A stretch of DNA of 64,000 nucleotides from assembly GCF_003334335.1 (NCBI RefSeq), contig NZ_QOWQ01000001.1, one strand, 5' to 3'. This DNA is from Escherichia coli. Its GTDB lineage: Bacteria; Pseudomonadota; Gammaproteobacteria; Enterobacterales; Enterobacteriaceae. Shown one piece after another: positions 24,649-25,005 of this stretch (position 1 is the stretch's first letter; the number at the start of each line of letters is the position of its first letter). The position numbers and the translations under genes are program-made. The notes under the pieces are model-generated. The model saw only the letters and a program-made list of their open reading frames with translations. It did not search any database and was not told where the DNA came from.

Positions 24649-24673
24649 GATATTCCTTTCTGCTTATCTCAAG

Positions 24674-24696
24674 GCCCGCTCTGCGGGTCTTTTTTT
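24674..24696 (+). terminator. Rho-independent terminator after fbaA (first of two near-identical copies)
   Basis: cccgc-tct-gcggg followed by tcttttttt; near-duplicate ccccgctctgcgggg+attttttc at 24842..24864, each followed by cgccaaaagcaa. Confidence 0.6.
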
Positions 24697-24712
24697 CGCC
24701 AAAAGCAAAATT

Positions 24713-24811
24713 GCCTGATGCGCTACGCTTATCAGGCCTACACGTATCCTGCAATATATTGAATTTGCAGGTTTTTGTAGGCCGGATAAGGCGTTCACGC
24801 CGCATCCGGCA
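24713..24811. repeat. BIME with two REP units
   Basis: gcctgatgcgctacgcttatcaggcctac and gtaggccggataaggcgttcacgccgcatccggca. Confidence 0.7.
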
Positions 24812-25005
24812 TGACAAAGCGCACATTGATATCTGTCTGAGCCCCGCTCTGCGGGGATTTTTTCGCCAAAAGCAAGGTGATTCAGATGAGAAATCTGTGA
24901 TCTATTTGGCAAAATTATGCTTTATTGTTTACCCTTGTCAGACTGCCCGTCATAAGGCGGCGGAGTGTATTTCTCCATTTTGAGTCAGTTGAAAAGGAAT
25001 ATTGA

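Follow-up and report, generated by a model that had tools for sequence, protein, structure and literature searches.

A BIME-1 element flanked by a duplicated terminator hairpin between fbaA and mscS of Escherichia coli, and related flanking repeats at other BIME-1 sites

The spacer between fbaA and mscS of Escherichia coli carries an intrinsic terminator in two copies, with a BIME-1 element between them. An ancestral insertion of BIME-1 beside the fbaA terminator very probably duplicated its target, the direct repeats would make a 167-bp block unstable, and the locus is one case of a wider pattern. BIME-1 elements are the same as the RIP/RIB elements (Gilson 1991; Boccard and Prentki 1993; summarised in PMC3333891 and PMC1187871). 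The element, its IHF site and its presence/absence polymorphism are already known, while the mechanism by which REP, BIME and REPIN sequences spread and insert has been called unresolved (PMC3116915, PMC3333891 and a 2026 bioRxiv preprint). In the accessible literature, we found no flanking duplication of hairpin length, no recurrence of one at several loci and no tandem units of BIME-1 plus terminator; Bachellier 1997, Gilson 1991 and Boccard and Prentki 1993 may have noted flanking duplications. The locus taken alone is a polymorphic BIME-1 insertion of an ordinary kind, and its moderate interest lies in its being an example of a recurrent insertion footprint. A first-pass annotation, made from the sequence alone, had described the repeated hairpin and the REP units between its copies. 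Three points go beyond it, which are the variation in copy number (0, 1 or 2 units), the old insertion shared across species, and the hairpin duplication at other BIME-1 loci.

The duplicated terminator block and the element between its copies

The DNA analysed is a stretch of 64,000 nucleotides, hereafter the window, which is K-12-like, with 100% identity to K-12 derivatives over 501 nt. The upstream gene, fbaA, encodes class II fructose-bisphosphate aldolase and occupies segment 23569..24648 (+); it is annotated by RefSeq on identical DNA, and its translation is an exact match to the 359-aa protein. The downstream gene, mscS, occupies 25006..25866 (+). The 357-bp spacer that separates the two genes holds the duplicated terminator and the REP pair, and the MG1655 RefSeq record has no repeat features annotated there. 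Its last segment, 24876..25005 (+), is the conserved mscS upstream region, as defined by allele alignments. A hairpin, a T-run and a tail stand directly before this region in every allele, an arrangement that is kept by the duplication.

The near-identical recurrence of the hairpin and T-run, as first annotated, was borne out by a repeat finder and by gapped alignment, and the annotated coordinates are good to about 2 nt. A 37-nt block, 24672-24708, is repeated as 36 nt at 24840-24875. The repeat finder gave 88% identity between 24672-24695 and 24840-24863, and 18 of 18 identical positions between 24691-24708 and 24858-24875, which form an 18-nt tail. The pairwise alignment that had been proposed as a check has 33 matches, 3 substitutions and one T indel, with a score of 52, far above that of shuffled sequence; in 300 dinucleotide-type shuffles of the intergenic region, the best direct-repeat score had a mean of 17.6 and a maximum of 30. 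The direct repeat is non-random and lies far above chance.

Copy 1 of the direct repeat, at 24672..24708 (+), is composed of AGGCCCGCTCTGCGGGTC, T7 and the native tail CGCCAAAAGCAA, and is identical to the lone copy of the empty alleles. Its terminator, T1, passes the terminator scan with a hairpin at 24671-24691 that has 9 pairs, a 3-nt loop and T7; the G-C core is at 24673-24689, the T-run at 24690-24696 and the tail at 24697-24708 (+). Copy 2, at 24840..24875 (+), is composed of AGCCCCGCTCTGCGGGGA, T6 and the same tail. Its terminator, T2, also passes the scan, with a stem-loop at 24842-24856 that has 6 G-C pairs and a 3-nt loop and is followed by an A and T6; the T-run is at 24858-24863 and the tail at 24864-24875 (+). 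The predicted folding energies of T1 and T2 are -14.1 and -11.6 kcal/mol, respectively, and both have the form of an intrinsic terminator, a G+C-rich stem-loop directly before a U-tract. The stem of T2 differs from that of T1 by a G:U to C:G double change. A graded series of T2 forms was found, in which GF3-3 has the T2 left arm and the T1 right arm, a second genome (L096) has GGGGC and T7, and K-12 has GGGGA and T6. This series is consistent with a point change in one stem arm that was later compensated in the other. A 65-nt query with T2 and the adjoining spacer returned one place per genome, with no second genomic source, and the spacer alone is a repeated B arm; T2 was therefore not carried in with the element.

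Curated 3' ends of MG1655 transcripts are available from Term-seq (Adams et al. 2021, PMC7815308, supplementary file 1). The window position equals 3094813 minus the MG1655 position, a conversion that was verified on the mscS start codon. For T1, the 3' end is at MG1655 3070119 (-), window 24694, the fifth or fourth U, both in LB at OD 0.4 (160,555 reads) and in M63 (120,854 reads), and at MG1655 3070118 (-), window 24695, in LB at OD 2.0 (54,607 reads). For T2, a 3' end classed as 'orphan' is at MG1655 3069950 (-), window 24863, the last U, in LB at OD 2.0 only (44,902 reads). Since these published ends fall in both U-tracts, both hairpins coincide with real transcript ends. The reading as two tandem terminators, which the first-pass annotation had offered beside that of a duplication, is supported, and it describes the same structure. 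T1 presumably stops most fbaA transcripts, with T2 catching read-through that carries the REP pair; the 3' end at T2 could also come from RNA processing or exonuclease stalling, not termination. It is plausible that the pair guards mscS from fbaA transcription. T2 is dispensable, given that about 30% of E. coli genomes lack it and that it has decayed in E. whittamii.

Between the two copies lie, as annotated, two REP units, and they are in inverted orientation. The insert, at 24709..24839 (+), has 131 nt and consists of AATT, a Y REP, an L linker, a Z REP and a B arm, while the A arm is missing. The Y-type REP, GCCTGATGCGCTACGCTTATCAGGCCTAC, at 24713..24741 (+), forms an inverted repeat with the second REP and aligns to the Y unit of canonical BIME-1. 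The L linker, at 24742..24776 (+), has an IHF-consensus-like site inside; the predicted IHF-type site, ATTCAATATATTG at 24752-24764 (-), has 1 mismatch to WATCAANNNNTTR. The Z-type REP, GTAGGCCGGATAAGGCGTTCACGCCGCATCCGGCA, at 24777..24811 (+), is identified by the inverted repeat, a weak naRNA4 match and alignment to canonical copies. The outer B arm, TGACAAAGCGCACATTGATATCTGTCTGAG, at 24812..24841 (+), aligns to the outer arm of BIME-1 copies at unrelated loci. Its family form, CATCCGGCATGAACAAAGCGCACTTTGTCAACAATCTGAG, is not locus-specific; the median E. coli genome has 26 occurrences of it. We dropped a reading of the stretch of about 28 nt after the Z REP as unique sequence, as this stretch is the repeated B arm of BIME-1.

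The REP arms 24728-24742 and 24776-24790 are inverted and 93% complementary, and the REP pair folds as one long hairpin (-51.6 kcal/mol, z = -5.0). The REPs and the L linker align unit for unit with canonical BIME-1 copies at other loci. An nhmmer profile made from 9 canonical copies matched 24699-24835 at profile positions 11-148 of 152 (E = 9e-41). The match starts at position 11 of 152 and extends into the native tail, which leaves the element with its B arm but without the outer A arm. Together with the alignments to copies at unrelated loci, this match identifies the insert as a canonical BIME-1 minus its outer A arm. The insert segment is missing from the short alleles. Rfam family ES036/CssrF matched 24734-24776 (-) with 47.3 bits against a gathering score of 37.6; the matched segment corresponds to the L linker and REP stems, and this family probably matches many BIME-1 copies. 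At the insert, Rfam returned REP-derived families alone (ES036/CssrF and the weak naRNA4 match), with no riboswitch and no dedicated sRNA.

Alleles and history of the spacer

We surveyed the locus in 5,426 complete E. coli genomes. The long allele, which is the K-12 form, is carried by 3,720-3,781 of them, about 70%. A short allele, with exactly 167 bp less, is carried by about 1,640, or about 30%, among them the B2 strains ATCC 11775, Nissle 1917 and 536. The short allele comprises one terminator identical to copy 1, the tail and GGTGAT. These BIME-less strains, which lack exactly the 167 bp and keep a single terminator with its tail, support the proposal that an inserted BIME is bracketed by a direct duplication of some 35 bp. 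A two-unit allele was found in one E. coli genome, SW070917, and has two identical 167-bp units and three terminators. An allele with two terminators and no BIME between them, named at the outset as the observation that would speak against a duplication around the element, is absent from all 5,426 genomes and from four other Escherichia lineages. None of the 5,426 genomes has a chimeric short allele with the T1 left arm and the T2 right arm, which would prove deletion. In six genomes, for example O150:H6 FEX669 (L097, 268-296), the T1 hairpin of the short allele is followed by T6 and not by T7, a difference that is ambiguous between slippage in the T-run and a crossover of T1 and T2 within the T-run.

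Two single-genome variants concern the same segment. In E. coli 536 (L098, NC_008253.1, 268-322), the short allele has an 18-bp tandem duplication, in which TCTTTTTTTCGCCAAAAG is found twice. It falls within the T-run and tail, and one G is missing from the terminator stem; in the same record, fbaA is annotated as 1266 nt. The tandem duplication may have arisen by slippage, or it may be an error in an old sequence. The sequence of O157:H7 TR01 (L086, 1691-1961), in which Ns occur and half of the BIME and all of T2 are missing, was discarded as most likely an assembly defect.

Beyond the main body of E. coli, Escherichia sp. E1V33 has three terminators and two units, with 3 differences between the units over 169 positions. 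E. whittamii carries a single unit, and its T2 is degenerate. The short form is found in two divergent genomes that are labelled E. coli and whose mscS is 95.4% and 88.9% identical to that of the window. In two species of Citrobacter, the BIME is absent and the one terminator is unrelated; the spacing from the T-run to the conserved TGTGATC is the same. We rejected the possibility that short alleles owe the tail CGCCAAAAGCAA to a remnant of the A arm, since Citrobacter without BIME has this same spacing and a related GCCA..CAA motif; the tail is therefore native sequence.

The contig scan for the fbaA-mscS locus returned none from E. albertii, E. fergusonii or Salmonella. Many of its matches are to a paralogous mscS-like gene, which is not the fbaA-linked mscS. 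In Trabulsiella, many Citrobacter and Pseudocitrobacter, the best MscS match adjoins a LysR-type-regulator-like gene and not fbaA (L008-L013, L015, L016 and others). This LysR-adjoining gene is apparently a second mscS-like paralogue, and a conserved motif of its own, AAAATGGCATATTC ... TTTGTTTACCTTTAA, lies upstream of it.

The insert junctions are identical in E. coli, E1V33 and E. whittamii. Among these three Escherichia lineages, the insert has diverged by 11-17%, mscS by 9-11% and the flanking spacer by 2-4%; in the mscS upstream region, E. coli differs from E1V33 or E. whittamii at 5 of 133 nt. The shared junctions and the divergence of the insert indicate a single, old insertion. In a neighbour-joining tree built from mscS and its upstream spacer, the states with 0, 1 and 2 units are interspersed. 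The simplest account of this distribution is recurrent precise loss and occasional gain through the 36-nt repeats, with recombination contributing, and we infer that the direct repeats would allow the 167-bp block to be lost and gained repeatedly.

A different history, which we consider rather unlikely, would need no recurrent deletions. The short allele would be original in E. coli, and the long allele would have been imported by recombination from another Escherichia lineage. B2 strains carry short alleles, as do two divergent lineages (L004 and L005), and all combinations of flank haplotypes exist, so that recombination has occurred in the region. However, the 11-17% distance of the E. coli insert from those of E1V33 and E. 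whittamii means that no sampled donor fits, and the local tree places a long allele (L087) at the base of the E. coli sequences. This alternative bears on the history only and leaves the structure unchanged.

Flanking hairpins at other BIME-1 sites and the mode of insertion

Metagenome contigs were scanned for a 20-mer of the B arm, which gave 118 loci, and the flanks of 20 distinct near-complete BIME-1 sites were compared over 60 nt on each side. The full-length BIME-1 starts with GAGACTGATGACAAACGCAAAA and ends with TTTGTCAACAATCTGA. At its two ends, TGAGACTGATGACAAA and TTTGTCAACAATCTGA form an imperfect inverted repeat of about 16 nt, and direct repeats flank the element. At 5 of the 20 sites, fbaA-mscS included, the two flanks align with each other at scores between 27 and 46, whereas no pairing among 380 mismatched left and right flanks scored above 22. 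At a sixth site, the flanks share a 9-nt repeat (p = 0.03). In all five, the repeat is the local G+C-rich hairpin, which touches both ends of the element. The other sites with a hairpin at both ends are agp-yccJ, uspB-pitA, ymdF-rutG and fbp, with one BIME-1 each, while most other sampled BIME-1 copies have a hairpin on one side.

The agp-yccJ site is filled in 89 of the 5,426 genomes, uspB-pitA in 1,940 and ymdF-rutG in 1,734, with length differences between filled and empty alleles of 182, 173 and 175 bp, respectively. The empty alleles of these three sites have one hairpin each. A repeat found at both ends of the element and single in the empty site, the mark of a target duplication, thus occurs at fbaA-mscS, agp-yccJ, uspB-pitA and ymdF-rutG. 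The duplications measure about 23, 23, 25, 28 and 36 bp; each spans the local hairpin, and there is no fixed length. At the yidB locus, almost all genomes are filled. We rejected the reading of the second hairpins as inverted copies of a palindrome, as the loops keep their direct orientation at fbaA, agp and fbp.

Several variants of these hairpins were seen. In the filled allele of agp-yccJ (1.6% of genomes), the hairpin on the B-arm side differs from the empty-site hairpin at 4 of 28 positions, with about 1% difference in the flanks (L219 3380-3600, compared with L221, L223, L224 and L225). This divergence of the second hairpin is more than expected and counts against our best explanation. 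The altered hairpin copy is on the B-arm side at fbaA, agp-yccJ and uspB-pitA and on the A-arm side at ymdF-rutG. The empty agp-yccJ site of E. coli FSIS11705876 (L225) has the inner stem and loop CCCCCGTTCGCTACGGGGG instead of CCCCCGCGAGAAGCGGGGG, with the outer stem kept and the core replaced. In the fbp terminator hairpin, the inner part is reverse-complemented between L148 (11760-11960) and L222 (E. coli SCPM-O-B-9504), CCGGATTGCTCCGG versus CCGGAGCAATCCGG; from the two sequences, this flip is of the kind that intrastrand template switching would make.

In the scheme that we propose, BIME-1 would have inserted just downstream of the intrinsic terminator of fbaA, in the ancestor of E. coli, E. 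whittamii and E1V33. The target, which comprises the hairpin, the T-run and 12 nt (35-37 bp in total), would have been left on both sides, giving the K-12-type allele, with two intrinsic terminators 167 bp apart and BIME-1 between them. Recombination or replication slippage between the 36-nt repeats could then remove the block precisely and produce the short allele, and exchange between the same repeats could add a second unit, as in SW070917 and E1V33. The stagger of the insertion would be set by the hairpin and not by a fixed number of bases, with a target duplication of 23-36 bp. A candidate step is that each strand is nicked at the foot of the extruded hairpin, followed by joining and fill-in. 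No insertion event was observed, and the target duplication is therefore deduced from the comparison of alleles.

The fbaA copy is atypical in two ways: the A arm is missing, and the repeat extends 12 nt past the T-run. Its native tail is A-arm-like, as it agrees with the A arm, TGACAAACGCAA, at 9 of 12 positions. A secondary event at fbaA (a microhomology junction, a 20-nt deletion or a gene conversion) must therefore be assumed.

The five sites together raise the tentative possibility, which we hold with some reserve, that BIME-1 is MITE-like, with imperfect terminal inverted repeats of about 16 nt, and integrates specifically at the hairpins of intrinsic terminators, duplicating the whole hairpin over a length of 23-36 bp that is set by structure. 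The duplication tracks the extent of the terminator hairpin, which constrains the mechanism and defines a preferred target. If such hairpin-targeted insertion is true, these repeats would be the first concrete footprint of the entry of REP/BIME sequences into new sites. It would explain the location of REP/BIME sequences at the 3' ends of transcription units and, via unequal exchange, the arrays of terminator plus BIME, and it would give an insertion signature beyond the predictions of the IS200/IS605-type RAYT model.

The main alternative, an unlikely one in our judgement, is template switching. A replication fork would stall at the hairpin, the nascent strand would copy a BIME-1 located elsewhere by microhomology, and on returning upstream it would copy the hairpin again, with no need for a dedicated enzyme. 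The fbaA junctions lie in patches that resemble the BIME arms, namely the tail with its 9 of 12 positions in common with the A arm, and TATCTCAAG, which resembles the B-arm end ATCTGAG. The variable length of the duplication, 23 to 36 bp, is also in line with template switching. Against this, the other loci have precise and complete ends, GAGACTGATGAC ... CAATCTGA, at which no microhomology is needed and which look like the product of cleavage at defined ends.

A third reading, which is very unlikely, takes the locus as the remnant of a tandem array made by RAYT-type rolling-circle amplification with capture of the flank (the Ton-Hoang model); insertion itself would not have duplicated the target. 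A BIME and a terminator would together form the repeat unit, of which K-12 would retain one complete copy and part of another. Two-unit arrays in exact register do exist, and the model explicitly permits the capture of flanking sequence (PMC3333891). However, an extra deletion must be assumed, since K-12 has two terminators and one BIME; the two-unit alleles are explained by simple unequal exchange between the 36-nt repeats; and agp-yccJ, uspB-pitA, ymdF-rutG and fbp each have a single BIME-1 between two hairpins, with no sign of an array.

It is hardly credible that a doubling of the terminator, favoured by selection to shield mscS from the strongly expressed fbaA, came first and that a BIME later landed between the copies: small local duplications do occur, as the 18-bp tandem in the short allele of strain 536 illustrates, and both hairpins mark RNA 3' ends, but no two-copy allele without BIME was found in E. 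coli or other Escherichia lineages, the BIME ends exactly at the repeat boundaries, and the order hairpin-BIME-hairpin is found at four other loci, three of which have empty alleles with a single hairpin.

Comparison with known systems and other features of the window

The insert resembles described BIME-1/RIP elements in its inverted Y and Z REPs, its long L linker with a predicted IHF-type site and its outer B motif. Like them, it is intergenic and lies at the 3' end of a transcription unit, and some isolates carry it while others do not. It differs from them in that the A arm is missing and the element is bracketed by the 36-nt duplication of a host terminator. Moreover, BIME-1 is described as single-copy, whereas the fbaA copy occurs as two units in a row, each with a copy of the terminator, in SW070917 and E1V33 (it is single in K-12).

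REPINs mobilised by RAYT/TnpAREP (PMC3116915, PMC2817692 and PMC3333891) are similar in that an inverted REP doublet is the presumed mobile unit and is non-autonomous, and TnpAREP cleaves next to hairpins. Y1 transposition of the IS200/IS605 type is the usual proposal for REP/BIME and makes no target duplication (PMC3333891), so that the known candidate enzyme does not predict the duplication signature. This single-strand transposition contrasts with the present sites, where duplications of 23-36 bp coincide with the target hairpin. A shared target tetranucleotide, as expected for the IS200/IS605 type, was not evident in the sequences of the BIME-1 insertion sites.

MITEs, such as Correia elements and ERIC, share with full-length BIME-1 the terminal inverted repeats and the flanking direct repeats. 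The duplications made by MITEs are short and fixed, whereas those at BIME-1 are long and variable and have the extent of a hairpin.

Bacterial group IIC introns prefer to insert at terminator stem-loops, after the hairpin, without duplicating it. BIME-1 would share this preference for terminator stem-loops, but it has neither ribozyme nor reverse transcriptase, and the introns leave the hairpin single.

Precise excision of Tn10 and Tn5 occurs by slipped mispairing between short direct repeats and is stimulated by intervening inverted repeats. The fbaA locus likewise has direct repeats around an element with inverted repeats; judging from the alleles, loss would restore the empty site and gain would give a tandem copy.

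Intrinsic terminators in tandem are known, for example T1 and T2 of rrnB. As in rrnB, two signals made of a hairpin and a U-tract follow a highly expressed gene in series, and both mark 3' ends in vivo. T2 of fbaA differs in being a by-product of the insertion of an element, 167 nt away, absent in about 30% of E. coli and degenerate in E. whittamii. A common E. coli polymorphism thus alters the 3' end architecture of fbaA, which is among the most highly expressed genes, just upstream of mscS. The natural alleles, with one, two or three terminators and the REP pair, can serve for testing the effects of REPs and backup terminators on read-through and mRNA stability.

Two other REP clusters are found in the window, at 11958-12144 and 52340-52514. 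They are BIME-2 or atypical, with internal tandem units spaced 113 and 119 nt, respectively, and no flanking host duplication was seen at either cluster. The cluster at 52340-52514 has an Rfam naRNA4 match of 75 bits. Rfam also matched 6S RNA (ssrS) at 38647-38830 (-) and a Sib antitoxin RNA at 37848-37998 (-), both of which are expected for this region of the K-12 map.
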